DNA of 47,565 nt from a virus (lineage: Duplodnaviria; Caudoviricetes). The position numbers were made by a program, and so were the translations under genes. Below, in pieces: positions 20,145 to 42,067 of the stretch. The DNA lies in IMG/VR virus record IMGVR_UViG_3300043220_000046, positions 1 through 47,565 of that record; one strand, written 5' to 3'. The notes beneath the pieces were generated by a model. It did no database searches. It saw only the letters and a list, made by a program, of their open reading frames with translations, and had not been told where the DNA came from. The number at the start of each line of letters is the position of its first letter. Positions within the stretch are counted from its first letter, which is position 1.

Positions 20145-20335
20145 GAGCCAGGCCGTGCGAGCGATGCGGTTCTATGGCCGAGGTGACCAGGCAGAAGAAG
20201 CTGCAGATCACCAAATGCTCGCACTGCAAGCACAAGACGATCAAGCACATCATCAACAAAGGCTGCGGAGGCTGAGGCGGTCGCAACCGCCTGCGCCGTG
20301 TGCGCCGCGCCACTAGGAACCTGACCATCTCATGA
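20141..20335 (+). CDS. Zinc-ribbon protein with in-frame UGA (20273-20275) in a CGGU motif; 44 aa if terminated, 64 aa if recoded
   Basis: MRARPCERCG...KCSHCK...KGCGG*GGRNRLRRVRRATRNLTIS; ATGA overlaps at both 20141 and 20332. Confidence 0.7.
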
Positions 20336-20757
20336 GATACCCGTTCAAGTGCTACGACTGCGAGACCGATCAGACGATCGACACTCGCCCACTCCATCCC
20401 CCGAAGGCACCGGACTGCCCGGCCTGCGGCGAAGCCATGGACCGCGTCTACGGCTGCAGCATCAACACGAGCTCTTGCCAGGACGTGGACTTCATCCCCG
20501 AGAAGGATCGGATTGCCTGCGGCGCCGGCGACCAGAACATGACGTCCGGCCAGGCGGCAGCGATCGAGAAGAAGCACGCCGCGCACAACGAGCAGACCAG
20601 GCGCGACCTGGCCGACGGCGGCAACCGGGGGCAGATGAAGAAGAAGATGCAGATCCCGGCCGCGCTCTACCATGGCAAGATCAAGCAGACCGGGGACCGC
20701 AACTACTGGGATGACTCGAAGAACCGGAACCGGCACAAGTCCTGCCAGGTGAGCTAG
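20332..20757 (+). CDS. FmdB-like zinc-ribbon protein
   Basis: MRYPFKCYDC...CPACGEAMDRVY N-terminus. Confidence 0.8.
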   Translation: MRYPFKCYDCETDQTIDTRPLHPPKAPDCPACGEAMDRVYGCSINTSSCQDVDFIPEKDRIACGAGDQNMTSGQAAAIEKKHAAHNEQTRRDLADGGNRGQMKKKMQIPAALYHGKIKQTGDRNYWDDSKNRNRHKSCQVS

Positions 20758-20761
20758 CCCC

Positions 20762-22399
20762 ATGACCGAAGCCTTCGAAGACAAATTCAACCGGCCCGAT
20801 GCGGTGGTGGGGACCAACTACACCGTCCCATGCGGCAGTGCGCATATCTTCGACGAATCGGTGCTCCCGGTGAAGGTCGAGACCATCAACGGCTCAGAGG
20901 TCCTAGAAACGCCCCTGGAGCGATGCCAGGTCATCCTCACCGCTGAGGTCCTCGACAGCCCCGACCAAGCTCTCAGGGCGGTCTGGGGCCACGACGCGGT
21001 CGTCCCAGCCGGTGTAGACACTCCGCCGAGCTTCACGATCCTCGCCAGGGCCACAAAGGACCCCCTGGTGATTGACCTGGCGCCGCCGGACGAGTCGCCA
21101 GACTGCTACGACCAGTTCTACGGGCTCCGGGTCACCTGCCCTCTTGACGGCTCGAGCCCGATCCTCAAGCTGATCAAGAAGCAGCCGAGGAACCGGGTGT
21201 CCGGGCTATCGAACCCGAGCTCGGTCGAGCCTGACCTTGCCCAGGTCTTGGCGTCGGTGGTGATCATCAGCCAGGCGCTCAACGTGGACCCGACCTGGGA
21301 CAACACAGGCGACCCACCCTACCGGGGCTTCTGGCAGGACATGCGTCTGCGCATCCGCCGCGGCGACAACGAGGTGGTGCTCGAGGCGTTCCTCAACGAT
21401 CGCTACTTGAACAACCCGATCCTCACCTACACGGATCACCAGGACCCGCTCTGGTCGACGATCGGCGAGCCAGGCTTTGAGTTCCTCTCGGCCGTGCTCT
21501 CGACCCAACCTGCAGGCGCATCGCCGTTTGCTCAAGGCGCCGCGGCGCTCATGCGCTGCACGCTGTTCTCGGTCCAGACGGTGAAGGACGTCCGTCGGCC
21601 GAACATGGTGATTCCGTCGAACCAGTTCACCTACGCCCGCGTCGTCGATCGCGTGATCACGCTCGTCGAGAAGAACGGCGATGCCAAATACACGGCCACC
21701 AACTCAGGCGTAACGAAGCGCGAGACCTACCTCGGCTTCGTGCTCGAGGCTGAGGGTGAGATCATTCGCGAGGAGGGCTACTACCACTGGCTTCGTCGAA
21801 CCCAGCGAATCTTCCTCGAGGATGGACAGGACACCTACGAGCTCCCCGAGAACGTCGGCGAGATCCAGATGGTTCGGCCAGGAAACTTCGTCTCGGGTCC
21901 GCTCAGTGAGATGGAGCCGTTCGACTTCCATCAGTCGATCGCCGGTCGGCTGAGCTCTGGCGGCAAGCCAGCGATTTACATCATGGCGCCAGAGACGGTG
22001 AACAACCGACCGGCGATTCGCTTGTTCCCGACACCGCTGATCTCCTCGATCGCGGTGAACGACGACACCCTCAGTCCCTTCCTCGAGATTGACTATTACG
22101 CGCGCCAGGTGTTCCCCAGCGATCCGTCGATGCAGATCCCGTTCGTCCCGCAGCAGGACATCGACGTTCTGACCTACGGGGCGACGGCGCATGCTCTCAC
22201 GCTCGACACCGACGACGCCAACTCGCAGCGCATGCTCGCCATGTATATGGGTAAGCGCGCTGGTCTGCGCCGCAAGAACAACCGCAAGGTGTCAGGTCGC
22301 CGGACTGTCATGCGATCGGCCGCCGACGTCTTCGTTCCAACCGAGGGGACTCGGGTCCCGACTCTCCGAGCAACCCAGCTGCAGAACTTCCTCCTATGA
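20762..22399 (+). CDS. Head-tail adaptor with ~290-aa N-terminal beta-rich extension
   Basis: C-terminal half W.RRTQ..L..GQDTYELP..G.P..Y..IRLFPTP..IDYY..P..P..DVL.YGA is podoviral adaptor-like. Confidence 0.7.
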   Translation: MTEAFEDKFNRPDAVVGTNYTVPCGSAHIFDESVLPVKVETINGSEVLETPLERCQVILTAEVLDSPDQALRAVWGHDAVVPAGVDTPPSFTILARATKDPLVIDLAPPDESPDCYDQFYGLRVTCPLDGSSPILKLIKKQPRNRVSGLSNPSSVEPDLAQVLASVVIISQALNVDPTWDNTGDPPYRGFWQDMRLRIRRGDNEVVLEAFLNDRYLNNPILTYTDHQDPLWSTIGEPGFEFLSAVLSTQPAGASPFAQGAAALMRCTLFSVQTVKDVRRPNMVIPSNQFTYARVVDRVITLVEKNGDAKYTATNSGVTKRETYLGFVLEAEGEIIREEGYYHWLRRTQRIFLEDGQDTYELPENVGEIQMVRPGNFVSGPLSEMEPFDFHQSIAGRLSSGGKPAIYIMAPETVNNRPAIRLFPTPLISSIAVNDDTLSPFLEIDYYARQVFPSDPSMQIPFVPQQDIDVLTYGATAHALTLDTDDANSQRMLAMYMGKRAGLRRKNNRKVSGRRTVMRSAADVFVPTEGTRVPTLRATQLQNFLL

Positions 22400-23280
22400 C
22401 CAAGATGCAGGAGTTCCCGCTTCGGCCTCAAGGCCGACCATGGGCGGGCATCAACACCAGGTCGGGAAAGCTCGACGACGGTTCAGGCCAGATGACCGAT
22501 TCCTCGGTCAACTGCATCATCAACCGCGCCGACGAGCTCTCGAAGCGCAAGGGCATGGTGCGCGGCATCGACGAGCGATTCGCTGGCTCGGTGTGCGGCC
22601 TGCACAAATACAGCGACGAATGTGGACGAGAATGGTTGCTTGTGGCCGATGAAGGGGGCTTCTCAGTTCGGCAGCCATTCTCGATCCCTTCCTTCGCGGC
22701 GTCGGATGCATATCCGAGTGATGCATTTGCATCAGACGGCCCGGTCGACACCAACTTCTGGAACGACACGGAGGGCTACGAGCAGGCGGGCGGAGCTCTC
22801 GTCCTGCAGGCGGGGCAGTCGAATCCTGGCGACATGACCTGGTTCAAGGTCGCGAGCAACTTCTCCTACCAGTCCGTCGTCGACTTCACGATCGACAACG
22901 ACTCGACCGTGGTCGCCATCATCAAGAAGGCGGCCGTCGCCCGCCTCGAGGCGCGCATCGTCCGCGTTGCCGGCAACGGGATCGTGACCCTCGTCTGGAC
23001 CGACTCAAGCGGATCCGAAACCGTCCTTGGGACCGCCGGCATCAACACCGCCACAGCTGGATCCATGACCCTGAGCTACGAACGCAACGCCGTGGGCAAC
23101 ACCTTCACCGCCAAGCTCGAGGTCTTCCCCGAAGGCCTGGCGTCATTCGTCCTCGAGGATTCCGACACGATCAACGCCCTCGCTGATTCCGACCTTGGTC
23201 AACAGACCGCGCTCAGACTTGAAAGCGCGACCGGCGCGAGCTCGGGCACCGTCCTCGAGATCCAGGGGAGCCCGCTCTAA
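22396..23280 (+). CDS. Tail protein carrying the N-terminal part of a nozzle/stabilisation protein
   Basis: WAGINT...VN......LSKRKG...VCGLH resembles N-termini of P22 gp10-like nozzle proteins. Confidence 0.6.
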   Translation: MTKMQEFPLRPQGRPWAGINTRSGKLDDGSGQMTDSSVNCIINRADELSKRKGMVRGIDERFAGSVCGLHKYSDECGREWLLVADEGGFSVRQPFSIPSFAASDAYPSDAFASDGPVDTNFWNDTEGYEQAGGALVLQAGQSNPGDMTWFKVASNFSYQSVVDFTIDNDSTVVAIIKKAAVARLEARIVRVAGNGIVTLVWTDSSGSETVLGTAGINTATAGSMTLSYERNAVGNTFTAKLEVFPEGLASFVLEDSDTINALADSDLGQQTALRLESATGASSGTVLEIQGSPL

Positions 23281-26200
23281 TGGCTGGCCTCCGCTACCCA
23301 GGCACCGTCCTCGCGAACGGCTGGCTCAACATCGGCGGCGCAACCGGCGGGTGGTCGCCGTTCGTCCTGACCGACAACTGGCTGACCTCGTCGCTCGAGC
23401 ACCACCGCCTTTACCTCGCGCCGAGTCGCTACAGCAGCGTGCGCAAGGTGATCTTCTCGCTCACCTTCCAGCACATCCAGACGGGCGGCACTCTCGCCGA
23501 CACCTTCTCGATGCGGGTGGCGCCCTCGAGCACGAGCACGCAGAACCGCGACACGATCGAGAGCAACGCGATCGCTCAAGACTCACGGCCCGTCGTCTCC
23601 GGTGTCGGCCAGATCTGGAGCGTCAACGAACCGCTGCGGGACGCGGCCTTCTACGCGCTCAACGGCAGCGAGAACCAACTCGCCCCGCGCCAGGTCGCGA
23701 ACGAGCCACCGATCACGACGGACGCCCAGACCCTCGTCGTCGAGTTCGATCGGTTCAGCGCGGGGAGCGCGGACTTCTTCGCCGACTGGGACGCGATCGT
23801 CGATCTCGCTTCTGACGATCGCTACATCGCCTACGCCCTGGGCATCCAGAGGGACAGCCTCTCAGCCTTCACGGGCGGACTCGGCGACACGACCAGGCAT
23901 CCAACGATCATCGGCTGCCAGGTCACCGTGGTTCAGGCTCCAGCATTGGAGAACAACACCTGCACTTACGTCCCGATGACCAACGGCCTCCACCCGGACG
24001 AGAACTTCAATGTGCCAGGCACGATCCAGAAGATGGTGCCGTTCACCTTCCGGGCGGCCGACTGGGATGGGATCGAGTCGATCAACTGGGTGATGCGCCA
24101 GACCCCGCGCTCCGGAGCCAACAGCGTCGGCTTCTACCAGGTCCACCTGCAGGAGATCGCGAACAACGAATCGAAGCCTGGCACGCTGATCGACACGCAC
24201 CAGGTCTCGCCAAGCGCAACGAACATCAGCACGTTCATGCGCTCGGACGACATCAAGGCGTTCTTCGGGGACGGCAAGACCTACACGGCGAGCTTCACGT
24301 CGAACACTGGCAGCGGCCAGCAGGATCTGCCATGGGGCTGGCTCGAGATCATCCAGAAGAACTGCACGAAGAAGGTCACGATCCATCCGGTCGGCATGGG
24401 CAACGTCGCCGGCGTCACCACCTTCGTCCCGTCGGCCCCGTCGTCGATCGGTGACTTCCGCTTCGCGAGCGACCAGTCCCTCTTCGATCCTGATTGGTAT
24501 GAGAACATGCCGATCTCGTTCTTCCTCGGCCAACGGTTCTTTGGCGGCATCGACCACATTGCCGACAGCGACACCGATCAGATGTTCGTCCTGAACAACG
24601 ACCTCGGTGCCGACATTCCGAACTCAGCGTTCAACCTGGTCGGCGACGAGGTGAGCTCGACCCCTGATGCCGACCCTGGCGTCCGCCTTCGGAACAGGCC
24701 TATCACGAGTGGGCGGGTGAACCCGTTGCTTGTGGGTGTCCGCAGCGTTCTCAAGATGCGCTACAACCGCGACAGCTGGGACGCCCTCGAGGTGTCCGGC
24801 CTGAGCGGGGTTGCCTACACGTTCACGATCCCGAACAAGGAGTTCCTCGAGCTCGGCCCGATCTTCGAGATTGGGAAGTTCGATCCAGAGGGTTGCACGA
24901 GCACAGCTGCAGGTCTCGGCGATAGCCCGGGAATGCTCTTCCTCACGAATGGGAGCTCCATCCCGAAGAAGTTCAACCCAACGTCAGGGATCGTCGACAA
25001 CGCGGGCATGCCGACGCCATTCCGCGATCAGGAGCCGTCGGTGACGACCGACAGTGTCGCGCTCTCGCCGGACGGCGGTCTCACGCCTGGTGTCTACAAG
25101 TATCGCTACACCCTGCGCAACTGCTGCACGGGCAAGGAGAGTGATCCGAACCCGGTCGACATCGAGGCGGATGCCAACGGGGAGACGCCGGCGGCGGAGG
25201 TGACCCTCAATTTCTCGGGCGTGGTCATCCCTGCGGACTCGCAGATTTGCGAGATCTGCATCTACCGGACGATCATCGACGGGGACTTCCCGGTGATGGC
25301 GAAGGTCGGCTGCTTCGACCCGGACGATACCTCGACCTTCGTCGACATCCTGAGCGACTCGCTCCTCGACTTCGTGAACGACTCGCTCTCGATCCTCAAC
25401 GCACCGATGCCGTGCGTGAGCGTGGTCGCGCAGTTCCGCAATCGTCTCTTCGGGCTCGGCGACATTCCTCAGCTGGATCCACCGGGGACCGTGAGCGTCA
25501 CGCTCGATAGCGACATCCTCGAGGGCGACAGCGAGACTGAGTTCGATCGCTGCGTGATTGGCAAGTTCATTCAGATTGAAGGCGACTGCACTTCCTACGA
25601 GGTCGTCGAGCTCCTGGCGCCGATCGAGTCGACACCGCTCGCTGGCGTGAGGCTCAAGCTCGATCGACCCTACGAGGGGATCACCGACGAAGGGCTGAAC
25701 TACATCACCTGCGGGCACCCGAACCGGCTCTACATTTCGGAGCCCCTCGAGGGCGAGTGCTGGCCGGGGATCAACTTCCTCGACATCGACCCAGGCGACG
25801 GCGATCGCCTGATGGGTGCCATCACCAACTTCAACCGCCTGGTGGTCTGCAAGCGAAACAAGACCTACGTGGTTGCCTTCCGCGAGCAGCCGATCCTTGA
25901 AATCGTGGTGCCGACCCTGATCTCGAGCGACATCGGTTGTGTTGCCCCGCGCAGTGTCGCGCAGGTCGCCAGCGGCTCGGTGTGGCTGAGCGATCGCGGC
26001 CTGGCGCTCTACGACGGCCGCGGCGTTGGGGCTGTCCCGGAAAGCGCCGTGATGAACGATCTGTTCGTCAACCCTGAGAACCCGAACTACCTGCGCCGCG
26101 ACTCCAATGGACGGGTGCTCGGCGCCGCCGGCGTCTTCTACCCGAGGCGTGAGCAATACCTGCTCCTGCTTCCAACGGTGAAGACGACCCGTGGCGCGAG

Positions 26201-27613: not shown

Positions 27614-27616
27614 CCC

Positions 27617-28495: not shown

Positions 28496-28497
28496 CC

Positions 28498-29967
28498 ATG
28501 GCACGCACCGACAAGTTGGAACAATCCCGGATCATGCTTCAAGCCGGGCAGTCCGGCCAAAGCGCAAAGCAGCGAGCTCAAGAGAGCGCCGTAGCCGAGC
28601 GGCAGGGCGAGCGCCGCATGGACATCTCGGAAGAGCAGTCCAACCTCAACCGCCAGCAGCGGCAGTGGGAGCAGACGCGGAGCGATCGCGCCCGGCGTGA
28701 GCAGGACCTGGCGCGACGTCAGGCGGGGAAGCCTCGCACCACGAACTTCGGTGGCGAGGGCTACGATCCCAACGCGCAGCAGCAACCCGACGCGAAGCTC
28801 GAGGAGTCGAAGCGGCAGTTCGACGTCTCGCACACCGAGAGGCAACGGCAGTTCGACGTATCGACCGATCTCGCGGCCGCGAAGAGTGGCCTGCAGCAGG
28901 GAGGGACTCCTGGAGCCGAAGCGCCGTTCGATCCTCGGCCTGGCTTGGCCGAGGGCGAGCAAGGACCTGTAGATCCGCGTCTACTGCAGCTGCAGAGGGA
29001 CATGGCTCGTGGTCGAGAGCAGATGAATGCTGGCCTCGAATCCCGCGGCCGCCGAGGCTTCGTCGCTACGCCGGAAGCTGAGGCGGCAGGGCGGCAGGAG
29101 GCCGGTATGAGTGAGCGTGCCATGCAGGTGAAGGAGCTTGAAGCCGCGGCGAAGTGGCAGAGCGCCGTCACCTCTCATGGAAGGCTGTTAGCTCAGGAGA
29201 ATGCTGCGAAGAGCGGCGAGACTCGAGCGACGATCAGGGCCAAGCGCCTCAAGGTCGAGGAGAGCCTCATGCAGCCGATCAAGAGCTCGTCGGCGAAGCT
29301 CGATCGGATGATGAAGGGTGAGGGCACCGAGGCAGACTGGCAATCTATCGAGTCGATGCTGAGCAAGGTCCCGCCTGTCGGGAACGCCAGGGCGAGTCAT
29401 GAGGAGCTCGCTGCCCGCGAGTTCGGCCCTGCGCTTGTCCGCTTCATCGGTGAGAAGGTTGCAGCCAACGCCGTCCAATACATCTACGCCACGGGCAAGC
29501 TGCCCGACGGCGGCCTGGTCGACTTCAGTTCGGCCGGGATGCAGGAATTCAGCCAACGAGCGATCGAAGCAAGGCAGCAATTGCTGCCGAACACAGTTGC
29601 CGGTCAACTTCTCACCGACGAAGAAGTCGGCCAGGTCAAGCGGGGCTGGGCTGACCACCTCTTGATGGTGCATAAGCTGGCAGCCCTTCTCGTTATGAAG
29701 AAGCAGAAGGCTGGTGGAGTCATGCCATCAGCGGCGATGTCCGCACAGCAGGAGCCAACCCATGAGCAGCGTCGAGTCGATCCCTCCAAGCCCACTACCT
29801 TCGCCGAGGAATACGGACAGATCACTCCCGAGGAGGCAGGGCGACGAGCAGAGGAGGCCGGAGGAACAGCAGCCCCAAAGACCGGACTCGCTCCAATCAC
29901 AGACCCCAACCCCGAGTATCCAAGCAGGGGAAGCGTCTCAGGTCGAAAGCCCAGCCAATACCGATAG
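28498..29967 (+). CDS. Putative internal virion / DNA ejection protein
   Basis: Charged coiled coil with duplicated RQFDVS motif; position. Confidence 0.6.
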   Translation: MARTDKLEQSRIMLQAGQSGQSAKQRAQESAVAERQGERRMDISEEQSNLNRQQRQWEQTRSDRARREQDLARRQAGKPRTTNFGGEGYDPNAQQQPDAKLEESKRQFDVSHTERQRQFDVSTDLAAAKSGLQQGGTPGAEAPFDPRPGLAEGEQGPVDPRLLQLQRDMARGREQMNAGLESRGRRGFVATPEAEAAGRQEAGMSERAMQVKELEAAAKWQSAVTSHGRLLAQENAAKSGETRATIRAKRLKVEESLMQPIKSSSAKLDRMMKGEGTEADWQSIESMLSKVPPVGNARASHEELAAREFGPALVRFIGEKVAANAVQYIYATGKLPDGGLVDFSSAGMQEFSQRAIEARQQLLPNTVAGQLLTDEEVGQVKRGWADHLLMVHKLAALLVMKKQKAGGVMPSAAMSAQQEPTHEQRRVDPSKPTTFAEEYGQITPEEAGRRAEEAGGTAAPKTGLAPITDPNPEYPSRGSVSGRKPSQYR

Positions 29968-32900
29968 GTCGGCGGATCTCTACAGCCTGCAGCTGGACGC
30001 CCTGGCGTCCGGTGACGACAGCCTGGCGTCCTACCTCAAGCAGATCCAGGTCGACCAGGCTGTCCTCGACCAGGGTCTCCTGCAGGCTCAAGGTGCCCCC
30101 GCCTCGTCCCCGACGGCGACGAGCCTGGGTGGCGATCCGGACATCGAGATCCACCGGCAGCTTTATGCCTACATGCAGCGCGAGAGCGCGATGGACGGCA
30201 TCCTGGAGCAGCACAACATCGGGGAACTCGGGACTTACCTCGGCACGGTGCTCGAGCGATACAAGGCGCACAACGAAGAGTCGCTCGAGCAGAACTCGGA
30301 CCAGATGAGCGACGAGCAGCGCATCAACTACATGCGCCAGTTAGAGCCGGTCGTCGTCGACCCGAACGAGATTGCGGAGCTCCGACAGCGCCTGGTGGAG
30401 ATCGACATGGCGATGAAGCAGGTCGATCCTCGAGCATCGGTCTACTCACACCCGAAGACGAAGAGGGTTGCCAACTGGCTGGCACGCGAGTCCGGCCCCT
30501 TCACGCCTGGATTCCTCAAGTCCGGTGAGCAGAAGATGGAAGGGTTGACCACCGGCCTGGGTGAGACGATGGCTCTGGCTGAGGGCGTCACCGGATTCGG
30601 CCTCAACATGCTCGCCGGCGCCGCGGACCTGACCGCCAACGCGATCAAGGGAATCATGGGCGAGGAGTATGGGCTGCCCTTCGCCGTCGCGACGAACTAC
30701 GTCGAGGACGAGAACGGTCGACTGGTCAACAACGGCGGCAAGGTGCCCGGGATCGTATCGATCATGGCGGCCGTCAATGCGCAGATCCTCGGCCAGAACG
30801 TGCTCGAGTATGTGAACCGCGTCGGCGCCGCTCGTGAGTTCGAGAGGCTGAACGAGTCCGGGTTCGACTACCTATCACGCGGTGCCGCCGGCATCGCTGG
30901 GATTGCTGCTGGCTTTGGCCCCATTGCGGGTGGCGCCATGGGGGCAGGCAAGGCTCTCGCGGTTGGTGGTCGCATCGGTGGCGGCACGGCCTCGATCGGC
31001 AAGCTCGGCTTCACGATGCCGAGTGTCACCGTGGGTGGTCTGGCGACGAAAGGCCTGATGCGCATGGCCGCCAGCGGTGCGTCCCCGCGCGTGATCAAGC
31101 TGACCAAGATCCTGGCGGGGACCGGCGGCGCCATGGTTGCCAACGGCCTGGCCGAGGGTCTGGCGTTCGGCCGGACCGAGGGCTACGGCCACGCCTTCGT
31201 CGGCGGGATGGCGATGGCGCCAGTCCTCATGGCGTTCGGCGCGATGGGTCGGAGCTCCGAGCGATTCTTGACCACCCGCGCGAAGATGCCGCAGCGCGTC
31301 GCTCAGTCGCTGTCCGGCGCCCTCGAGGGGGCTGGGTTCGGCGCCCTTGAGGCGCACCAGACCGGCGCCCTGTGGATGCTGATGAAGGACCCGACCCGGA
31401 GCAACTGGGAGATCTTCGCCAAGAACATGCTCGGCTTCGCTCTCTTCAAAGGCATGGCTGGGCGCTCGGTCGTGGAAGCCCCGACGTTCGGCGAGGCGCA
31501 AGGGCGCCAGACCTACCGGCAAGGTGCCCGCGAGGCCCTCGGGGAGGAGGTAGCGAGGGCGGATGTGGTGGGGGTGCGCGAGACGATCGGGGGTGTGCGT
31601 GAGACGATTGAGGGTCGTGAGCCCACCGTCCCCGAAGGCGAGCGCGGCGCTGAGCAGATCAAGGGCGTTCTGCCGGGTCCAGAAGCACAGATGAAGCAGG
31701 CGGCCCGCGGCGAACTCGTCGAGGGCGAGATCGTGCGCACCGAGGACGTCATGGCCGAGCGCACCAAGAAGGCCGAGGCTCAGGGTCGCGATCCCCTCGA
31801 GGACCCCGACTTCATGAAGCGGCCGGAGGCTGAGCGGCGGGCGATCACCGAGGCAGGTGCCGCCAGGGAGCGGCGCATCGCCGCCGAGGAGTTCGAAGGA
31901 CCTGAGCGTCGGCGCGCTGAGGGTGGAAGAGAACGGCCCGCCGAGGCCGAGCGTCTTCCACCCACCCCTGAAGGTGAGGCTCCGGCTCGACTTACCGCCG
32001 AGGAGATCCGGACTGAAACGGCCAGGCTTCGCGCGGAGGGTCCCACCCCCGAGAATCGGGCTCGGTTGATCGAGCTCCTCAACGCGGAGAAGGGTCGGAT
32101 CACCGAGGGCGTCGGCGAGGCCTACCGCCGGATCGGCAAGATGATCCCGCAGCCGCACAAGCAGGAGCTCCGCATCCCGCGTGCCGTCAAGGAGACGCCG
32201 GCGGAGGTGGGACGACGGGAGGACCTCGAGGCTCGTGTTCGGGAGAGCGGAATGCCCAGGGATCTTTTATCTGCCTTAGGCAGATTATCCCGTGCCCGCA
32301 AAGCCGCCAGATCGCCCGCTGAGGAAGCCAAGCTCTGGAAGGAGCAACGAGAGCTTGAGAAGGAGTTGGACGCCCTGGAGATGTCACAGGACCCCCTGAT
32401 GAACGCCAAGATGCGGGAGGCCCTGGCCGAGCTCGAGGTGGAGGAGCTCGACGTGCCGGTTGACCCGGAGTTCGGCGAGCGGGCGGGTCCGGAGTCCATG
32501 CGGGCGCCAGCGAGTCCCTTCCGTCAGCAGGAGAGCCTCCTCCGGCCTGGTGAGGAGCCTGTGCGGGCCTCCGACATCATTGAAGTCCTCAAGGGGCGCC
32601 CAGGCTTCCCGGGGATCCGGATGCCGTTCACCGGCCGCCGGCGCCTCTCGATCCCGGGGTCGGCGGTGCAGATCGCGATCCGCTCAGGGCGCATCTCAGG
32701 GAAGGGGACCGCGGGCGTGTTCAAGATCTTCGAGAACTTGACGCGGACCAAGGAAGGCATGGACCTGGTCGTCTCGCTGCACGAGTGGGCGCACGGCATG
32801 CAGCGCCAGGTCCTGGTCGGTGAGGGTGGGGAGAAGTTCTCAAGAGGTGTGAAGAAGTGGTTCAAAAGTCTCCCCGAAGACGCTCAGAACGACATGGGGA

Positions 32901-35900
32901 CAATCCTCCGTAACTACCCAGGGTGGCAGAAGCTACCGATCTGGGGCGTGGCGGCCGAGGCTTGGGCGGAGTGGCATGCGCGGAAGCTCCTGGGCGACCC
33001 CACCCTCGAGGCGGAGGTGCCGGCGCTCTCGCGCGAGCTCAACGCCTGGCTCGCCCGGACCCCGGAGCTCCGCACCCAATACGGCGAGCTCACGCAGCTG
33101 ATCGACACCTACAAGCGGCAGGGCGCCGAGTTCCGCGTCGACCAAAGCATCCGGCGAGGCAAGACGCGGAAGCAAGGCACCGTCGCCGAGCAGATCATCG
33201 GCGCCGGCGAGAAGGCATGGGACGCGGTCGTGAAGGGCTTCTTCGACGACATGCACCTGCTGAAGAAGAGCCAGCGCAAGTGGCTCGAGCTCTCCAGCAT
33301 CGACGAGGCCAGGCTGTCGATCATGAACAACCCCTCGAGAGTGTTCGACCTCCTGGCGATGACGGCCTCGAAGCAGGCTGAATCCTTCATCCACCGCGGC
33401 ACCCACAACCTCGCGCTCGAGCGGACCGGCGAGTCCCTCGAGAACATCTTTCACGACGTCGCCCGCTCCCCCGCCGGCGAACCACTCAAGGGGAAGGAGC
33501 GAGCGAGTTCGATCCGCGACTTCGTCAACTACCTGGTGTCGACCAGGTCCCTCGAGCTCATTGGTCACGGCAAGAAGCAGACGCTCCCCAAGTCGGACTA
33601 CCTCTACGCGAAACAGGCGCTTCTCAATCGACACCCAGAGTTCGCCGGCCTGGCTAAGCGCATGAAGGTCTGGTCGGACGCGCTGCTCGACCTGGTAGCT
33701 GAAGCAGGCAACGTCCCCCAAGCGGACATCCAGCGGATGAAGGACTACTCGACGGTCTACATCCCGTTCGTGCGCGCCCTCGAGGGAGCCGTCAAGGGTC
33801 GACCTGGTCGCGGTGTCGCCGAGAGAGGCGGTGGTATCAAGGGCATGAAGGGTGGCACCCAGGAGATCCTCGACCCGATGCGAGCGATGATGGAGGTGAC
33901 GACCACCATGATCGCCAAGGCGCACCAGCAGATGGTGATGAAGAGCCTTTACAAGACGACTCTCGTTGCCGACGTGGGCGGCCTGGCGACAGTCGTTCCA
34001 AAGAGCAATGTCCCGTCAAAGTTCCGGCTCGACCAGGTCTTCCGGCAGATGGAGCAGGCCGTGATGAAGCGGCTGCAGAAGGAGGGCCTCGAGGGCGAGG
34101 AGCTCGAAGGCTGGGACGAAGCCTTCGGCATGTTCGGCGAGCTCCTCGGCGAGGCTCAGATCTCCGATCAGCTGATCACGCTGTTCGGGCAGAAGGTCCT
34201 GCCGTTCGGCGAGGGCGCCAACATCATTGCCTACACCCCGCGCTTGACCGAGGCCGAGATCTCTGAGCTTCCGAAGCACGGCCAGGTCGTCGCTCGCCGG
34301 CAGAACGAAGAGATGCAGTGGCTCGAGGTCGACGCCGACGCCTACACCGCGCTCCTAGGCCTCGATCAGCCGGTCGGTCCGACTTTCCTTGACAACCCGA
34401 TCATGCAGGTGGTCTTCGTCAAGCCATGGAGGATGACCCGCTTCTTCGCGACGGAAGCTAACCCAGCATTCGTGGTGGCCAACTCGATCCGTGACACCAT
34501 GAGCGCGACGGTGTTCAGCCAGGAAGGCGAGATCAAATACAACCCGCTCGCCGGCCTGCAGAAGTTCACCGCCGGCGCTGCCCTGATGCTCGGCGGAAAG
34601 AACCAGCGGGTGGTCGATATGTATGAGGCGTCAGGCGCCTCAAGCGCGTCCCTCCACAGCGAGGGCGTCCGCCGTGAGATGCGAGGTGAAGCCACGACTA
34701 TGCTCGAGCGGTCGCGAGAAACCATCTCCAAGGCCATCGACAAGTGGCGTGGCTGGATGGGTAAGCCCGAGTCGTTCATTCGCATCGAGGAGTTCCGCCT
34801 GGTGCACGAGCGAGCGATCGCCGCGGGTAAAAGCCCGGTCGAGGCTGGGATGGAAGCCCTTGAGGCAGCGAAGGAGATCACGGTCAACTTCGCCCGCGCC
34901 GGCGGCATCGCCAGGTCGATCAATCAATACACCCCCTACTTCACAGCGAGCTTCGCCGGCCAGCGCAAGATGCTGCGGTCGATCGCCGGCATGGAAGGCC
35001 GCAACGATGGCGAGCGCGCCAGGATGCAACAGGCGGCGTTCGTCAATGGCCTGGTGTCGATCACCATGCCGACGCTCGCAGTCTGGGCACTCACCCACGA
35101 CGAGGACTGGTATCGCGACCTGCCCGAGTGGCGGAAGACGCACTTCATCAACATGAAGCTCCCAGGCTTCGACACGATCGTCTCAGTGCCGCTGCCGTTC
35201 GAGCTCGGCGTCATCTTCGGTTCGATGCCGGCGATCATGCTGGATCACATCACCGATTCGAATCCAGCCTCTCTCGGTCCAGCGCTGTGGGGAGCCATGT
35301 TCCCCTACCTCAGCGGCGTCAGCAGCCTCCTCCCCGCCGGCGCGAGGCCGATCCTCGAGGCGGTGACTGGCTACGACTTCTTCACGCAGAAGAAGCAGAC
35401 TCCGTTCTGGACAGAGAAGGGCCGGTTGCCAGCGGAGCAGATGCGTGCGGATACCACGGTCGTCGCCCAGGAGATGTTCAAGGCTGTTGGACACCTGATC
35501 CCGGGCATCGACAACCCGATCGAACTACAGCACGCGATCGGCGGCTACACGGCCGGCGCGAGCATCACCCTCATGAAGTCTCTTGACGAGCTCTTCGACC
35601 TCAAGGGTCACCCTGGAATCGCGCCAGGTGTGCTGGCTCCGTTCTCGAGCTTCCTGAATCGCTTCGCGCGACAGACACCGCATAGATCAAGCCGAGCAGT
35701 GGACGAGTTCTACGAACGATCCACCGAGCTCGAGCAAATGGGGCCAGCACGCAGTCAGAGGGAGAACCGACTGCTGAAGGCCATGAACCGTGATCGAAAG
35801 GCCATCTCTGCAATCCGCAAGCAGGTGGACCGTGGCTCGATCACACCGACAGAAGGGGATCGTCGGATTTACGAAATGGCGCGAAGGAGCCTTGAACGAT

Positions 35901-35908
35901 CGAACTGA
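29762..35908 (+). CDS. Large polyvalent / internal virion protein with HExxH motif and C-terminal LPD38-like domain (~2050 aa)
   Basis: AGGAG before ATG 29762; HEWAH; ITVNFARAG; WYRDLPEWRK..F....PLPFELG. Confidence 0.8.
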   Translation: MSSVESIPPSPLPSPRNTDRSLPRRQGDEQRRPEEQQPQRPDSLQSQTPTPSIQAGEASQVESPANTDRSADLYSLQLDALASGDDSLASYLKQIQVDQAVLDQGLLQAQGAPASSPTATSLGGDPDIEIHRQLYAYMQRESAMDGILEQHNIGELGTYLGTVLERYKAHNEESLEQNSDQMSDEQRINYMRQLEPVVVDPNEIAELRQRLVEIDMAMKQVDPRASVYSHPKTKRVANWLARESGPFTPGFLKSGEQKMEGLTTGLGETMALAEGVTGFGLNMLAGAADLTANAIKGIMGEEYGLPFAVATNYVEDENGRLVNNGGKVPGIVSIMAAVNAQILGQNVLEYVNRVGAAREFERLNESGFDYLSRGAAGIAGIAAGFGPIAGGAMGAGKALAVGGRIGGGTASIGKLGFTMPSVTVGGLATKGLMRMAASGASPRVIKLTKILAGTGGAMVANGLAEGLAFGRTEGYGHAFVGGMAMAPVLMAFGAMGRSSERFLTTRAKMPQRVAQSLSGALEGAGFGALEAHQTGALWMLMKDPTRSNWEIFAKNMLGFALFKGMAGRSVVEAPTFGEAQGRQTYRQGAREALGEEVARADVVGVRETIGGVRETIEGREPTVPEGERGAEQIKGVLPGPEAQMKQAARGELVEGEIVRTEDVMAERTKKAEAQGRDPLEDPDFMKRPEAERRAITEAGAARERRIAAEEFEGPERRRAEGGRERPAEAERLPPTPEGEAPARLTAEEIRTETARLRAEGPTPENRARLIELLNAEKGRITEGVGEAYRRIGKMIPQPHKQELRIPRAVKETPAEVGRREDLEARVRESGMPRDLLSALGRLSRARKAARSPAEEAKLWKEQRELEKELDALEMSQDPLMNAKMREALAELEVEELDVPVDPEFGERAGPESMRAPASPFRQQESLLRPGEEPVRASDIIEVLKGRPGFPGIRMPFTGRRRLSIPGSAVQIAIRSGRISGKGTAGVFKIFENLTRTKEGMDLVVSLHEWAHGMQRQVLVGEGGEKFSRGVKKWFKSLPEDAQNDMGTILRNYPGWQKLPIWGVAAEAWAEWHARKLLGDPTLEAEVPALSRELNAWLARTPELRTQYGELTQLIDTYKRQGAEFRVDQSIRRGKTRKQGTVAEQIIGAGEKAWDAVVKGFFDDMHLLKKSQRKWLELSSIDEARLSIMNNPSRVFDLLAMTASKQAESFIHRGTHNLALERTGESLENIFHDVARSPAGEPLKGKERASSIRDFVNYLVSTRSLELIGHGKKQTLPKSDYLYAKQALLNRHPEFAGLAKRMKVWSDALLDLVAEAGNVPQADIQRMKDYSTVYIPFVRALEGAVKGRPGRGVAERGGGIKGMKGGTQEILDPMRAMMEVTTTMIAKAHQQMVMKSLYKTTLVADVGGLATVVPKSNVPSKFRLDQVFRQMEQAVMKRLQKEGLEGEELEGWDEAFGMFGELLGEAQISDQLITLFGQKVLPFGEGANIIAYTPRLTEAEISELPKHGQVVARRQNEEMQWLEVDADAYTALLGLDQPVGPTFLDNPIMQVVFVKPWRMTRFFATEANPAFVVANSIRDTMSATVFSQEGEIKYNPLAGLQKFTAGAALMLGGKNQRVVDMYEASGASSASLHSEGVRREMRGEATTMLERSRETISKAIDKWRGWMGKPESFIRIEEFRLVHERAIAAGKSPVEAGMEALEAAKEITVNFARAGGIARSINQYTPYFTASFAGQRKMLRSIAGMEGRNDGERARMQQAAFVNGLVSITMPTLAVWALTHDEDWYRDLPEWRKTHFINMKLPGFDTIVSVPLPFELGVIFGSMPAIMLDHITDSNPASLGPALWGAMFPYLSGVSSLLPAGARPILEAVTGYDFFTQKKQTPFWTEKGRLPAEQMRADTTVVAQEMFKAVGHLIPGIDNPIELQHAIGGYTAGASITLMKSLDELFDLKGHPGIAPGVLAPFSSFLNRFARQTPHRSSRAVDEFYERSTELEQMGPARSQRENRLLKAMNRDRKAISAIRKQVDRGSITPTEGDRRIYEMARRSLERSN

Positions 35909-35913
35909 GAAAA

Positions 35914-36990: not shown

Positions 36991-37322
36991 GGTGCTGGGA
37001 TCATCCGGACCTTGCCGGTGACGATGTTGGTGGCTTCAACGAACTTCGGTTGGACGACGTCGCCGGCGTGCTTGCGCAGCATGCCGCGGGCCGCCTTGAA
37101 GGCTCGAACCTCGACGCTGATGATCTCCGCCTTCGTGAGCGGCCGCTTCGCCAGGTGCTCGTGCAGCTTGACCTCGAGCTTGTCGATCTTCTCGAACACG
37201 ACGGGACCTGCAGGTAGGTGCGGGAAGCACCGTTCGTATTCCTCCTCGAGCTTCTTCGCGACCCGGCGCATGGCCTGATTGCAGAGCTTGTCGGTGACGG
37301 TCCTAGAAGGGGCAGTCGTCAT
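36987..37322 (-). CDS. Hypothetical protein (~111 aa)
   Basis: Stop overlaps resolvase ATG; alternative start 37337. Confidence 0.75.
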   Translation of the reverse strand: MTTAPSRTVTDKLCNQAMRRVAKKLEEEYERCFPHLPAGPVVFEKIDKLEVKLHEHLAKRPLTKAEIISVEVRAFKAARGMLRKHAGDVVQPKFVEATNIVTGKVRMIPAP

Positions 37323-40300
37323 CGTAGGTCTCCCCATAGACGTCGAGCGGCTGCAGGTTGACTGGATCGTGGGTGATGCCCGGCAGGCTCCCTCGAGACT
37401 CGGGCGCGTTGTTCCAGTTCTCGAGCTCCCTGAACCTCGCGACGTAGGCCTCTGGGTTGTTGCGCGCCAGGTCGATCAGCCCGTGCAGGATGTTGAGCGC
37501 TCCCTCGGTCGGCCCGTAGCAGAGCTCGTTCCTGTAGCCCGTGCTCTCCTGCAGGGCGCTACTCCGCTGCAGGTGCGCGTGCCACCTAGCGAACTGCTTG
37601 AACTCCTCGATCTGACCACAGCCAGTAACCAGGCTCTGCAGTGAGCGCAGCGAGTTCGTCTCGCACAAGCGCGACAGCATGACGATCGCCTGATCCGGAT
37701 CGTCCAGGTCGAGGTAGATCGTGAAGGCGGCTTCGACGTGGAAGGGCTGCTTCACCGTGCGAGCCTGAATCACCCGCTGCGAATACTCGTCGTATTTGAG
37801 GTTCTGCCAGCATCGGATGATCCAGGCGATCGCCCACTGCACGTGCACCAGGCGCACCATGCACTCGCGCTCCTTGCCTTCGGGGTGGGAGTAGCACATG
37901 TTGGCGGCGGCGATCGCGATCCGGATGATCGAGTGGTGTTTCTCGATGCCGGTGTGCAGCGGCAAATCCTCGGCCGCGTAGATCGAGTCCCATTCAGAGG
38001 CAACTTGCTTCGCAAGCTGCACGGCCTCGGGTCCCAAGTGAATCTGATGCGGTTCCATTGCCCATCCCCGAAGGATCAGCGCTCGCGCGAGTTCGGGAGT
38101 CCACTGATGGTCGACATCCTGCTTCGTCATCTTCGCGGGGCTGTGCACGCACCAGGCGAAGTCCATTCTCGAGAGCGACTCGGGCACGCCGTAGAAGCTC
38201 AGCAGGTGCTGGCAGAAATACTGGAAGGTGCGGCGCGATCGGTTGGCCCAGTTGCCGGCGGTGATCAGCCGGACGGCCGCGGGTAGCTTGACGTCGCCGT
38301 AGACCTTGAGCGCGGAGACCCGCCCCTCGTCGCGCGCACTCTGCAGGTGCACCATCACGTTCTTGTCGGCCGGGCCGTTCGTCATGTGGTGGAACTCGTC
38401 GAGGAAGAGCATCTTCCGGTTGTTCTTCGGGAACAGACCTGGCTTCATCTTCGAGCCGTTGTCGGCGCCGCCAACCGTGAGGCCTGCCCGCGAGTAGTTC
38501 TCCATGCAGGTGAACGAGGTCCCGAGGCGCCAGTATTCGAACAGGCGCTTGACCGTCTCGCTCTTGCCCTGCCTGGTCTCACCGAAGAAGCAGGCGTCGA
38601 GCCAGGCTCTGTAGCGGTGCCCGTCGAGGTCATACCAAAGCGCCGAGTGAGCGACGAGCATCGTGCCGATGTGGAACTCTGGGCGGCCGTAGATCTGCGT
38701 GATGTTCTGCGAGTAGTCGAGCACCACCGAATCGATGTAGCGGTCGATCTCGGCCTGGTCGTTCGAGTTCCAAGGCGTCATGCCCATGAGGTCGACGTGG
38801 AAGTCCTCGAGGCGGACGTCTGGCTTGTCGAGTTGCACGAGCTTCGTCGCCAACACGCCCACGCTGTTCGTGCCGTAGTGCGCGTAGCCGGTGATGCCAA
38901 CTTCTCCGGACAGCGACGGCGATTCCGTCGAGACGATGTTGAGCATGTTGTTGCCGTCGTCGTCGTCGTCGGATGCGGTTGCCTGCCAGAAGGAGCCCAC
39001 CACTGTCTCGTCGTGAACGATCGCGCACTCGTTGCAGGCGGCCGGCTTGCACACCAGCCTGCGGATCCAGTAGGCCTCCGGGTCCTTCGACATCAGGCCA
39101 TTGAGTAGCTTGTCACGGTGCTGGCTCCAGTCGACATCGCCATCGGGGAAGAGGCGGAGCACTGGGCAGTCCTTGCAGCAGGTCTTAGTCCCTGCAGGGC
39201 AGACGATCTTGCTTGAGATCGGCACGGTCAAGGCGGGCTTCTCGATCGTCGCTACGGCGCCCTGGAAGCTGACATACTCGCCGGCGTTCTCGAAGACCTG
39301 TCGGTGCGAGACGTTGATCGGATCCTCTCGGTGCTCGACCAGGTCGGCGAGGTCACAGACCGGGAGCTCGTCGAAGCCCTTCTTCTTCGTCGCCCAGTCG
39401 CGCAGGTCGGCGCCGAAGTTGTCGACGGGATCTAGCGCGACGTGTAGGAGCTTGACCTTGCACTTGTTGGCGGCGAGCTTCTCGCAGACCCCGTTCACCA
39501 GGCTCTGCCGGCGGCGCCCCATCTCGCGGAGCTTCCTCGGCGTGGGTGCTCGAGCAGAATCGAAGTCGGGTCCTTGGAAGGTGTCGTTGTCGTAGCAGAC
39601 GTAGACCGTGCGGCCGCGCCAGGCGTCCGGCATCAGTGAGCTCGCGAGCGGCGACCCTGCCCCGCCGGTCCAGGTGAACGGGACGATCGGCGTCTCTCGC
39701 CTGTTGAGCTCGAGCATGATCCACGCGGCCAGGCAGTCCATCTCGCCTTCGCACAACAGGATTTCCGCGCCCTTGGGGATCTCGGGGACTGCCGGCCAGA
39801 AGCCGATCGGTCCTCCGCGGCCGTTCTTGCTCCAGCGCCACTTCACCTTGGCGAGCGGGGCGTAGATCCGATACCGCTCGCGCAGCGACCCGTCCGGGTT
39901 GAATTGGGCGAACACGATCGAGCCGTCGAGGAACCCGATGCCGAAGCGGGCAAGGATCTGCGGCCGCCATAGCCCACGGTCCGCGAAATGCTTCCGTGCC
40001 CACTCCGCGTCCGGATCCTCGCACAGATTGGCTATCGCCCGGTCGAGGCGCTCTACGGTCATCCTCGCGGCTTCTCGGCCGCGCTTCTTCTTCGCCTTCT
40101 GGTAGGGGATCCCGAGGAGATCGCCGACCTGCTTCGACGCGGCCCAGTCATCCTCGAGGCTGTGCTTCTCCTTCCACCATTCGAACAGGTCGAGCTTCCT
40201 CGAGCACTGCTTGCAGTTGATGAAGCCCGTAGCCTTCGAGATCGAGCAGCTGCCGTCGGTGTCGGTGCAACAGGGGCAGTTGATGTGCTGCCACTGAGGA

Positions 40301-40398
40301 TTCCCGCCATTCACCTTGACCAGCCCGAGAGCTTGGAGGCTAGAATCGAGATCTGCAGCGAATGCCTCTTTGACTACGGCGAAGTGGCTACGTTCCAT
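37303..40398 (-). CDS. Primase (Zn-binding + TOPRIM) fused to MCM-type AAA+ helicase
   Basis: CPCC..CKQC; CEGEMD, YDND; Walker A GETRQGKS, SRAGLT, Walker B LFLDEF, ITAGN, arginine finger SRMD. Confidence 0.88.
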   Translation of the reverse strand: MERSHFAVVKEAFAADLDSSLQALGLVKVNGGNPQWQHINCPCCTDTDGSCSISKATGFINCKQCSRKLDLFEWWKEKHSLEDDWAASKQVGDLLGIPYQKAKKKRGREAARMTVERLDRAIANLCEDPDAEWARKHFADRGLWRPQILARFGIGFLDGSIVFAQFNPDGSLRERYRIYAPLAKVKWRWSKNGRGGPIGFWPAVPEIPKGAEILLCEGEMDCLAAWIMLELNRRETPIVPFTWTGGAGSPLASSLMPDAWRGRTVYVCYDNDTFQGPDFDSARAPTPRKLREMGRRRQSLVNGVCEKLAANKCKVKLLHVALDPVDNFGADLRDWATKKKGFDELPVCDLADLVEHREDPINVSHRQVFENAGEYVSFQGAVATIEKPALTVPISSKIVCPAGTKTCCKDCPVLRLFPDGDVDWSQHRDKLLNGLMSKDPEAYWIRRLVCKPAACNECAIVHDETVVGSFWQATASDDDDDGNNMLNIVSTESPSLSGEVGITGYAHYGTNSVGVLATKLVQLDKPDVRLEDFHVDLMGMTPWNSNDQAEIDRYIDSVVLDYSQNITQIYGRPEFHIGTMLVAHSALWYDLDGHRYRAWLDACFFGETRQGKSETVKRLFEYWRLGTSFTCMENYSRAGLTVGGADNGSKMKPGLFPKNNRKMLFLDEFHHMTNGPADKNVMVHLQSARDEGRVSALKVYGDVKLPAAVRLITAGNWANRSRRTFQYFCQHLLSFYGVPESLSRMDFAWCVHSPAKMTKQDVDHQWTPELARALILRGWAMEPHQIHLGPEAVQLAKQVASEWDSIYAAEDLPLHTGIEKHHSIIRIAIAAANMCYSHPEGKERECMVRLVHVQWAIAWIIRCWQNLKYDEYSQRVIQARTVKQPFHVEAAFTIYLDLDDPDQAIVMLSRLCETNSLRSLQSLVTGCGQIEEFKQFARWHAHLQRSSALQESTGYRNELCYGPTEGALNILHGLIDLARNNPEAYVARFRELENWNNAPESRGSLPGITHDPVNLQPLDVYGETYDDDCPF

Positions 40399-40419
40399 TG
40401 ATGGATTCCTTGGACGTCA

Positions 40420-40464
40420 GAAGCCCCGCCGGTGACCTCAACCACCGGCGGGGCTTCGTTTTTT
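40420..40464 (+). terminator. Intrinsic terminator oriented for + strand transcripts, inside the - strand operon
   Basis: Perfect 15-bp stem GAAGCCCCGCCGGTG/CACCGGCGGGGCTTC followed by GTTTTTT on + strand. Confidence 0.75.
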
Positions 40465-40483
40465 CTAGGGGGACTGCTGGGGG

Positions 40484-41329
40484 CTAGGGGTCGATGTCGA
40501 AGTCGCCATCGCCGCTAGCTTCTTCGTCCGTGCTCTTGAGGTGACCGCTTTCATGCTTGTCTCTCACATTCTTGTAGAGTTCGTAGGCGGCGAGTTGAAG
40601 CTCGGCCGGGACTTTCTCGGTGGTCTGCCACGCCATCTGCAGCATGAAGTATTTCTTCGGATCCCCCGTAGCCATGGTCTTGGTGCCCTGGACGACGCGG
40701 ATCACGGTCGGGTGCGTCCACATGTATTTCTTGGTGCTGGTCCAGGCTGAGAGCCACTTGTTCGCCGCCTTGTAGCTGGAGCGGGAGAATCGGATGATGA
40801 CCGGGCCGAGGCTGGTCATCGCCACGAAGTGGTGCACCTGTGCGCCGAGTGGTGGCTTGTTGTTTTCGTCGTCCCAGTCCAGGCACTTTCGGCACTCCTC
40901 GCATGCACCGTAAACCGTGCCCTCGACCTGGTCGGGCGAGATGCAGGTCTCGAGGTCCTTGTATCGCTCGTCCTCCTTCGGGAAGAGGGCGTTGCCCTTG
41001 TGGTGGTGGACGATGATCACGCGGAGGTGGCCTTCGTCGAGAACCTCTTCGGAGCCGGTATGCATGAAGCGGCCAGGCACTGCGCCCTCGACCCCGTCGG
41101 TCACCGCGTCACTCGTGCCGTGCAGTAAGGCGAGCGTCGGCACGATCAGATCGTCGGGGTCGACGTTCTCTCGGCCGATGAGCTCGGGGATCCCCTCCAC
41201 TGTGAGGTCGGTGGCTGCGTCGAGTGGCAGCAGGTCGTTGCCTTTGAACTCCTTGGGCTTCCACACGGCAACGGCATCTGTCTTCTCTTCGGTGGTCGCT
41301 ACTGCGTCCGTCTTCTCTTCGCTGGTCAT
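40484..41329 (-). CDS. Putative single-stranded DNA-binding protein
   Basis: DLIVPTLALL..S..V...GAVPG.F motif, Cys cluster, acidic tail DGDFDIDP; upstream of primase-helicase. Confidence 0.6.
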   Translation of the reverse strand: MTSEEKTDAVATTEEKTDAVAVWKPKEFKGNDLLPLDAATDLTVEGIPELIGRENVDPDDLIVPTLALLHGTSDAVTDGVEGAVPGRFMHTGSEEVLDEGHLRVIIVHHHKGNALFPKEDERYKDLETCISPDQVEGTVYGACEECRKCLDWDDENNKPPLGAQVHHFVAMTSLGPVIIRFSRSSYKAANKWLSAWTSTKKYMWTHPTVIRVVQGTKTMATGDPKKYFMLQMAWQTTEKVPAELQLAAYELYKNVRDKHESGHLKSTDEEASGDGDFDIDP

Positions 41330-41334
41330 GGTTC

Positions 41335-41772
41335 TTAGCTCCTCTCGTTAGCTGAAAATTGTTTCCACCCGGTGCAGCTGACATCGGGCCTGGTCTTTAG
41401 CTTCATGAACTCGGGCACGTCGAACTCGTCGAGTTGCTCGCCTTCAATGTCGGCTTGGAGTCTCTCCTCCACGGTCTTCTTGTCCACCTTCTCGACGGTG
41501 AACTCGTTGACGTCGCCGTAGTGGCCGTGCAGCCACTCCTTCACATCCTCTTCGTTTTCCTTGTTGCAGGATATCGAGAACTGGTTGCGCAGGTTGAACG
41601 CGAGGCCGTTGTCGAGCTTCACGCCGCGCTGCTCGTCTGCGATCATCTGATCGACGAGCTTGGCTTTCGCAGCCTTGTGCTCCTTGTCGGCGGCCGCGGA
41701 GATCGCGTGCGCGTCGTCGTAGGTGAGACGGGTCGAGGTGTATTCCTCGAGAAGGTCATTCAGTGTTGTCAT
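41335..41772 (-). CDS. Conserved phage replication-module protein (acidic, N-terminal coiled coil)
   Basis: Clean 145-aa ORF; position upstream of SSB-like gene. Confidence 0.75.
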   Translation of the reverse strand: MTTLNDLLEEYTSTRLTYDDAHAISAAADKEHKAAKAKLVDQMIADEQRGVKLDNGLAFNLRNQFSISCNKENEEDVKEWLHGHYGDVNEFTVEKVDKKTVEERLQADIEGEQLDEFDVPEFMKLKTRPDVSCTGWKQFSANERS

Positions 41773-42067
41773 CGGCGGATTCCTTGGTTTCGGGATGGGT
41801 GAGCTCGAGAAGCTCGAGGATGAAAGGCACCGCCCGCAATGGGTGGTGTTGTAGGTAGAGCCCGACCTTCTGCTCTCGCGTGCAGTCCGTGTAGAGCTCC
41901 TCGGTCAGGGCTTCGAAGGATTCGAATTCAGGCATGGGATGGTCTCCTCCGCAGTCGCGGGGGGTGTGCTTGAAAGTGGTTTCGTTACAGGCGCCGCACG
42001 GGCACGTCGTCTCGGCTGCTCAACCCGACCAGGTCTTGCCGCAGCGCCAACACGGCCCGTGACTCAT
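41756..42067 (-). CDS. Cys-rich ORF with in-frame UGA (42022-42020); 103 aa if recoded; internal ATG 41935 gives a separate 59-aa protein
   Basis: MSHGPCWRCGKTWSG*AAETTCPCGACN...DCGGDHPMPEFESF...; ATGA overlap at 42064-42067; GGAGG before ATG 41935. Confidence 0.6.

Follow-up and report, generated by a model that had tools for sequence, protein, structure and literature searches.

Two small Cys-rich genes of an SU10-type podophage carry conserved in-frame UGA codons and are predicted to encode selenoproteins

Gene 1, gene 2 and their in-frame UGA codons

We analyzed a complete virus record, IMGVR_UViG_3300043220_000046 (47,565 bases, terminal repeats present). This whole stretch is called the window here. 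It comes from an SU10-type podophage and has a GC content of ~63%; one marine-sediment run, possibly its source, contains the complete sequence. Two small Cys-rich genes in the window, gene 1 and gene 2, each carry an in-frame UGA codon followed by a hairpin that resembles a bacterial selenocysteine insertion sequence (SECIS). From sequence comparison, we predict that both UGA codons are read as selenocysteine (Sec; U in protein patterns).

Gene 1 (20141..20335, plus strand) has 64 codons and is predicted to encode a basic zinc-ribbon selenoprotein (isoelectric point 11.4). Its layout is CxxC-x16-CxxC, followed by KGxGG-U and an Arg/Lys-rich tail. The UGA (20273..20275, plus) is codon 45 and lies in the context C-G-G-U. 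SECIS-like hairpin 1 (20293..20305, plus) has a 4-bp stem and the loop CGUGU, which starts 21 nt past the UGA. This loop uses rare codons: among eight window genes, CGT makes up 9% of Arg codons and GGT 17% of Gly codons. An extra 6-bp hairpin (20276..20291, plus) stands immediately 3′ of the UGA; this hairpin is the main structure in the fold predicted at gene 1 and is not a family feature. The start of gene 1 overlaps the upstream stop, and its own stop overlaps the next start (ATGA). The predicted protein model has four strands, with a predicted local distance difference test score (pLDDT) of 85–92 over residues 1–40 and a low score in the tail. In this model the zinc ribbon is complete upstream of the UGA, and the tail is unstructured and basic. 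A fold search returned generic zinc ribbons only, none at E 0.001 or better.

Gene 2 (41936..42067, minus strand) is a 44-codon, Cys/His-rich domain, also a predicted selenoprotein, with the pattern CxxC-G-x2-W-x-G-U-x5-C-x1-2-CxxC..H..C. The UGA (42020..42022, minus) falls between two Cys clusters. SECIS-like hairpin 2 (41991..42005, minus) has a 5-bp stem and the loop CGUGC, which starts 19 nt past the UGA. Its start codon, the ATG at 42067, shares bases with the stop of the upstream gene (ATGA), and an alternative ATG is found at 42079. Gene 2 has no stop of its own in the window, and its frame continues to 41756. The model predicted for it was of low quality, with pLDDT 70 and without regular structure, and a fold search with this model gave no match.

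An earlier note on this DNA had described these two interrupted frames and the stems closed by CGUG(U/C) 19–21 nt past each UGA. We confirmed both frames, both UGA positions and both stems. The note had also called them the only two clearly interrupted frames that it found. When the window was screened for two CxxC motifs accompanied by a hairpin, gene 1 and gene 2 were returned, and it is within this screen that the statement was checked. Its remark that UGA is an ordinary stop elsewhere held as well. UGA terminates 34 of the 56 roughly called window frames and is the commonest stop there, often in ATGA overlaps; the long window genes are open under table 11. No tRNA gene was found in the window, again as the note had it, nor in 34 pieces from 13 relatives. 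The window gave no Rfam match.

A contig of depth 51, possibly the source of the window, is identical to it over both UGA stretches. A contig from a second study spans 20174–20369 with 15 differences, of which the 11 listed ones leave the UGA and the hairpin untouched.

Conservation of the UGA, the frame beyond it and the hairpin

The relatives of gene 1 (family 1) came from 45 viral loci found by a capsid search (75–93% identity). Gene 1 is present in 32 of them. Twelve of the others end inside the capsid gene or within 60 bases of it, and one (L025) ends 308 bases past it; there, a frame that we take from its motif to be HNH-like (5238–5546) directly follows the capsid gene. All 10 relatives that are at least 90% complete have gene 1. 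At the gene 1 site, 32/32 loci having the gene, and also L062, read UGA; neither of the other stop codons (UAA, UAG) nor any sense codon occurs there. The codon is preceded by a KG..G motif in all 32, with Arg for the last Gly in L036. Removal of duplicates left 26 distinct sequences, including the window and L062, with 28–70% identity to the window protein. Gene 1 is a core late gene.

We also searched 1.84 billion representative proteins with a family 1 profile and obtained 47 matches. Thirty were retrieved, and 28 of these are family 1 members. All 28 stop at the Gly preceding the UGA position; the stop codons themselves are not displayed in these records, and some representatives may come from the same phages as our loci. 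The remaining 19 of the 47 matches, to other proteins, are short and partial and fall mainly on the ribbon. The records of L143, L122 and L133 gave no full family 1 match. L063 was rejected as a homologue since it is an 8-residue chance match, and a tblastn screen of all TGAs was dominated by out-of-frame matches and yielded nothing usable.

The family 1 frame beyond the UGA is conserved as coding sequence. In two groups of close tails, synonymous to non-synonymous pair counts were 40/23 and 51/36 in frame, compared with 13/70, 5/76, 22/75 and 1/92 in the other frames; pairs in such counts are not independent. The tail is 15–21 codons long in 23/26 members, and in these the second stop and the start codon of the next gene share bases. 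L015 and L044 have a frame that reaches into the following gene; L035 is unclear. UxxC occurs in 13/26 members, and a Cys lies within 7 residues past U in 25/26. The window gene has no Cys shortly past U and has a Cys three residues before it instead (CxxU).

All 26 family 1 members can form a stem closed by a G-U-containing loop. The loops are CGUGU (11), GGUC (9), CGUGC (4), GGUCC (1) and AGGU (1). The distance from UGA to loop is 21 nt in 18 members and 18, 24 or 27 nt in six more (24/26), so that it changes in codon steps. An unbroken stem of at least 4 bp is present in 20/26. Over the five inner pairs, 116/130 cells are formed, against 83 with shuffled partners (maximum 96) and 32–75 with slid partners. 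Covariation was scored in 12 of the 16 members with a five-base loop, which are distinct and align without gaps. Fifteen cells are altered on both sides, and 0/500 shuffles reached this value; these shuffle counts are not probabilities and overstate independence, as the loops were placed by eye and the sequences are related. In the related genomes, a motif trained on family 1 alone followed 53 of 15,445 TGAs; in the window it followed 5 of 1380, and two of these five are the gene 1 and gene 2 sites.

In L006, L008, L010, L011, L017 and L062, gene 1 lacks a clear Shine-Dalgarno site and starts, in the frame of the capsid gene, 1–2 codons past the capsid TAG. These loci may use reinitiation or make an extended form of the capsid protein.

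Homologues of gene 2 (family 2) were searched with patterns permitting TGN or any codon at the UGA site. Successive searches confirmed 1/1 and then 3/39 matches. In 119 metagenome loci, at least 6 of at least 85 in-frame matches were confirmed, at least 4 of them distinct. A further search confirmed 4 of 250, one of which was new. Four TGA matches (L128, L135, L239, L253) had no downstream homology and were not counted. UGA occupies the gene 2 site, inside the Cys cluster, in 9/9 distinct members. In the 8 aligned members, the Cys, Trp, Gly and His columns are invariant on both sides of the UGA, and protein homology extends ~30 residues beyond it. Synonymous to non-synonymous pair counts past the UGA were 53/45 in frame, against 3/98 and 15/84 in the other frames. 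The hairpin follows at 19 nt (loops CGUGY, AGUGU) or 22 nt (GUU, GGU), with an unbroken stem of at least 4 bp in 8/9 members and energies of −7.5 to −11.3 kcal/mol in the 8 members other than the window.

Family 2 comes from five virus records, including the window, and four metagenome contigs; L175 has phage-like small genes. L273 and L133 sit in replication-type regions. Gene 2 is absent from the records of 13 relatives of the window and from the matching slot in 14 of their loci, where other small genes are found. We regard gene 2 as a mobile accessory gene found in phage replication regions. In L056 and L057, upstream of a gp33-like gene, the gene 2 slot is filled by other small Cys-rich frames without UGA.

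The two families are unrelated (hhalign probability 4.4%), so their matched hairpins point to convergence on one decoding machine and not to a recoding system made by the phage. The proposal of the earlier note, site-specific recoding of UGA, is supported at both sites by the test that the note had itself put forward, conservation in relatives.

Reading of the UGA codons

We conclude that the UGA is very probably read through in both genes, and that in these two small, unrelated, Cys-rich phage genes host machinery probably reads it as Sec by way of the hairpin. As judged from sequence, they most likely represent two new phage selenoprotein families that use the standard bacterial mechanism. 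Both families show a conserved in-frame UGA with coding conservation beyond it. The published model of the bacterial SECIS (bSECIS) has an apical loop of 3–9 nt on an upper stem of 4–16 bp, a G within the loop's first two positions and mostly G or U after it, a UGA-loop distance of 16–37 nt and a folding energy of −7.5 kcal/mol or lower (PMC13188914). In the element of PMC8659212, the loop positions G23 and U24 are fixed. Both window sites agree with the bSECIS model in loop size, stem length, G position and spacing, and are borderline in energy.

In the proposed mechanism, host SelB carrying Sec-tRNA would bind the GU-loop hairpin, just as it acts on the host's own selenoprotein mRNAs. Since the phage has no tRNA, decoding would fall to SelB and Sec-tRNA of the host. 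Where SelB does not act, a release factor would terminate the chain at the UGA. In gene 1, readthrough would add Sec and a basic tail with a nearby Cys behind a complete zinc ribbon. From the position of gene 1 between the capsid and adaptor genes, the charge of its product and a Cys next to U, this product would most likely be a small nucleic-acid-binding protein of head assembly or of the capsid interior, with a selenium-sulfur redox pair. In gene 2 the UGA lies between Cys clusters, and therefore no metal site would be expected without readthrough, which would complete it. Among possible roles for gene 2, we favor that of a metal or redox cofactor site.

Several results weigh against the Sec reading. 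Pairs of Sec and Cys forms are the usual criterion for predicting selenoproteins, not a mechanistic requirement. We found no Cys-form homologue of family 1 among the 28 representatives and none of family 2 among its 9 members, so this classic test fails. Within the window itself, the two sites do not stand out. The motif of the earlier note, looked for 16–37 nt past each TGA as the note had proposed, occurs after 3 of 1380 window triplets against a mean of 1.9 in 40 shuffles, which is not above chance; 0/30 terminal UGA stops are followed by it. Folding z-scores of the window sites are near zero (−0.31 to +0.79). Alone, hairpins 1 and 2 have energies of −6.7 and −7.1 kcal/mol, short of the −7.5 of the model. 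The 45-nt stretches reach −17.3 and −10.1 kcal/mol, but through other pairings, and both SECIS-like hairpins are missing from their predicted minimum-energy folds. A loose rule of G in the loop is useless as a stand-alone detector, as 597 of the 1380 window TGAs pass it. The significance comes from the relatives, not from window statistics. Even there, the covariation that the earlier note had proposed to look for was found in gene 1, within the limits of the shuffle counts given above, but not in gene 2. Only one compensatory cell was found in gene 2, 154/500 shuffles scored as high, and its stem is owed largely to the conserved T-C-P-C-G-A codons.

Other explanations account for part of these data. 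The UGA could be a programmed leaky stop, at which the hairpin slows termination and a Trp or Cys tRNA reads the codon at a low rate without selenium, so that short and long products would form in a constant ratio. A UGA readthrough site of the Q-beta coat cistron is cited in PMC8310308. Leaky readthrough would explain why the UGA is conserved, why the frame stays open and why no Cys form exists. It would not lead one to expect that two unrelated families share a G-U loop at the distance used by SelB, nor the UxxC/CxxU context, and in gene 2 the short product would be 15 residues with half a metal site. We consider it improbable. If the UGA is instead a true stop, the downstream part would be a conserved untranslated RNA element or the ribosome-binding region of the next gene. 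The zinc ribbon of gene 1 is indeed complete before the UGA, databases carry its short form only, and a separate Shine-Dalgarno site often precedes the next gene. Against this stand the synonymous bias in frame, the spacing in codon steps, the stop-start overlap past the UGA, the lack of UAA or UAG in any member and the ~30 residues of gene 2 homology beyond the codon, which leave a true stop very little room.

Nonsense mutation, assembly error or a genome-wide Trp or Gly reassignment of UGA is largely refuted by conservation, and we give it hardly any credence. Small phage genes often decay, and gene 2 sits in a variable slot with no stop of its own in the window. Yet codon and position are the same throughout the 26 distinct sequences of family 1 and the 9 of family 2, and the source-like contig is identical. 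Reassignment (codes 4 and 25) is at odds with UGA as the commonest genome stop, ending 34/56 frames. Decoding of both UGA codons as Sec is the reading that we retain.

Evidence for a host is weak. Among 185,579 genomes, a capsid relative was found in one, on a 2.3-kb contig of a Deltaproteobacteria metagenome-assembled genome (G026), and this contig carries gene 1 with UGA and hairpin. G026 encodes selA, selB, tRNA-Sec (selC) and a UGA-bearing selD. Two features of G026 count against the link and the Sec reading: the phage contig has 59% GC, compared with 38–45% at three G026 loci, and is possibly mis-binned, and the hairpin loops of G026 selD and fdh read GGGCU. Beyond G026, the cellular search with family 1 gave three weak ribbon matches. 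Family 2 was found in 0/401 genomes sampled from the phylum of G026. Two cellular dual-CXXC small genes from two genomes of that phylum, in L276 and L278 near 1501, have an RT-UGA and a GGG- or GGU-containing hairpin.

The earlier note had further proposed that readthrough could tie the translation of downstream genes to the selenium or redox state of the host. For gene 1, the stop-start overlap in 23/26 members agrees with coupling, whereas the next gene has a Shine-Dalgarno-like site of its own (−4 kcal/mol or better) in 15/23. No such site is present in L001, L002, L003 and L014, the nearest kin of the window, and in the window the site scores −4.2 with long spacing. From this distribution, gating by readthrough is possible in the subclade of the window and is not general. 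The proposed fusion of gene 2 to the next gene was rejected as a conserved feature. The frame enters the next gene in only 2/9 members, and the 59-aa gene has a strong Shine-Dalgarno site (−9.5), so the fusion looks incidental. On these sequence data, selenium gating of downstream genes may be partial at most. A wider view would make the whole podophage clade selenium-dependent; gene 1 would encode an essential Sec-containing protein of the head and would also gate translation within the capsid operon. Ribosomes would then reach the downstream head genes efficiently only with SelB and charged Sec-tRNA, and virion assembly and host range would be coupled to the selenium state of the host. We think this unlikely.

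Neighboring genes and comparison with known systems

The plus strand of the window carries SU10-type portal, capsid and adaptor genes, and the minus strand carries helicase, primase and RecU genes. The SU10-type major capsid protein gene (18030..19055, plus; start approximate) is followed in relatives by gene 1, directly or past inserted genes. In the window two genes lie between them (19115–20144, plus), the second of which has no match in the 45 related loci. Downstream of gene 1 is its conserved neighbor, an FmdB-like zinc-ribbon gene of 141 aa (20332..20757, plus) that belongs to viral clusters of unknown function. The SU10-type head-tail adaptor gene (20762..22399, plus) is next in the late operon. 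Downstream of gene 2 and in frame with it is the 59-aa gene (41756..41935, minus), which stands alone in relatives. No close cultured phage was found (best capsid identity ~33%), and no RNA dataset is listed as carrying the window sequence.

Elsewhere in the window, an Acb2/Tad1 hairpin domain gene (PF24729, E 2e-13; 4844–5104, plus) is likely a sponge for immune signaling nucleotides. Glycosyltransferase-like genes and an FkbM methyltransferase gene (5623–8952 and 11167–13758, plus) flank the terminase gene, and glycosylation of virion or DNA is possible from this cluster. A 2064-aa protein with an LPD38 domain is encoded at 29714–35908 (plus), and a RadC-like JAB gene lies at 2140–2673 (minus).

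In the literature searched, which leaves out most subscription journals, we found no phage selenoprotein. Current catalogues list 119 selenoprotein families (PMC13188914) and 111 in BSepDB (PMC13326102); the words phage, virus and viral are absent from the main text of both. In PMC10747093, selenoproteins of huge phages are suggested from tRNA-Sec calls only, and passages of 10.1101/2022.07.06.499078 and 10.64898/2026.04.03.716425 mention phages in other contexts. Through these two unrelated phage families and their SECIS-like signals, the use of Sec would reach into bacterial viruses. They would serve as a marker for host prediction, as the host must have selA/B/C, and as a source of compact natural SECIS variants. 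They would also show that such genes are truncated or overlooked by gene callers, as with the 28/28 representatives that end at the UGA.

The arrangement in both families is like that of SelB-decoded genes of the Escherichia coli fdhF type, with an in-frame UGA and, 18–27 nt behind it, a short stem whose 3–5 nt loop contains G-U. The UxxC/CxxU context is likewise that of bacterial selenoprotein genes (PMC13188914, PMC8659212). Unlike fdhF-type genes, these are encoded by phages without tRNA genes, have no Cys-form homologue and match no curated family: neither family scores above the cut-off of any PHROG, Pfam or NCBIfam model.

The closest such model is NF041197, the dual CXXC motif small (seleno)protein (OS_HP3), which is also a small CxxC..CxxC ribbon. 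It weakly matches 9/26 family 1 members in the ribbon only, at best with 19.6 bits against a cut-off of 40, and conversely the family 1 profile finds two cellular NF041197-looking genes with UGA (E ~6e-5). The Sec of NF041197 lies in RxU between the CxxC pairs, whereas the U of family 1 follows the ribbon. We rejected membership of family 1 because the cut-off of 40 bits is not reached and the RxU position is not shared. In family 2 the U does lie between Cys clusters, yet there is no match. FmdB-family selenoproteins (TIGR02605, UxxU; PMC13188914, Table 1) are similar to gene 1 in being small zinc ribbons with Sec in a C-terminal tail. However, gene 1 scores 14.1 bits against a TIGR02605 cut-off of 31.3, and the FmdB-like gene of the window phage is the neighbor of gene 1 and has no UGA.

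The viral selenoproteins that we found in print are the glutathione peroxidases of poxviruses (molluscum contagiosum, fowlpox), named in PMC8310308. Like families 1 and 2 as predicted here, they combine a virus-encoded UGA with the Sec machinery of the host. The poxvirus peroxidases are captured eukaryotic enzymes with a eukaryotic SECIS, whereas families 1 and 2 occur in phage or phage-like DNA only and have bacterial-type hairpins.

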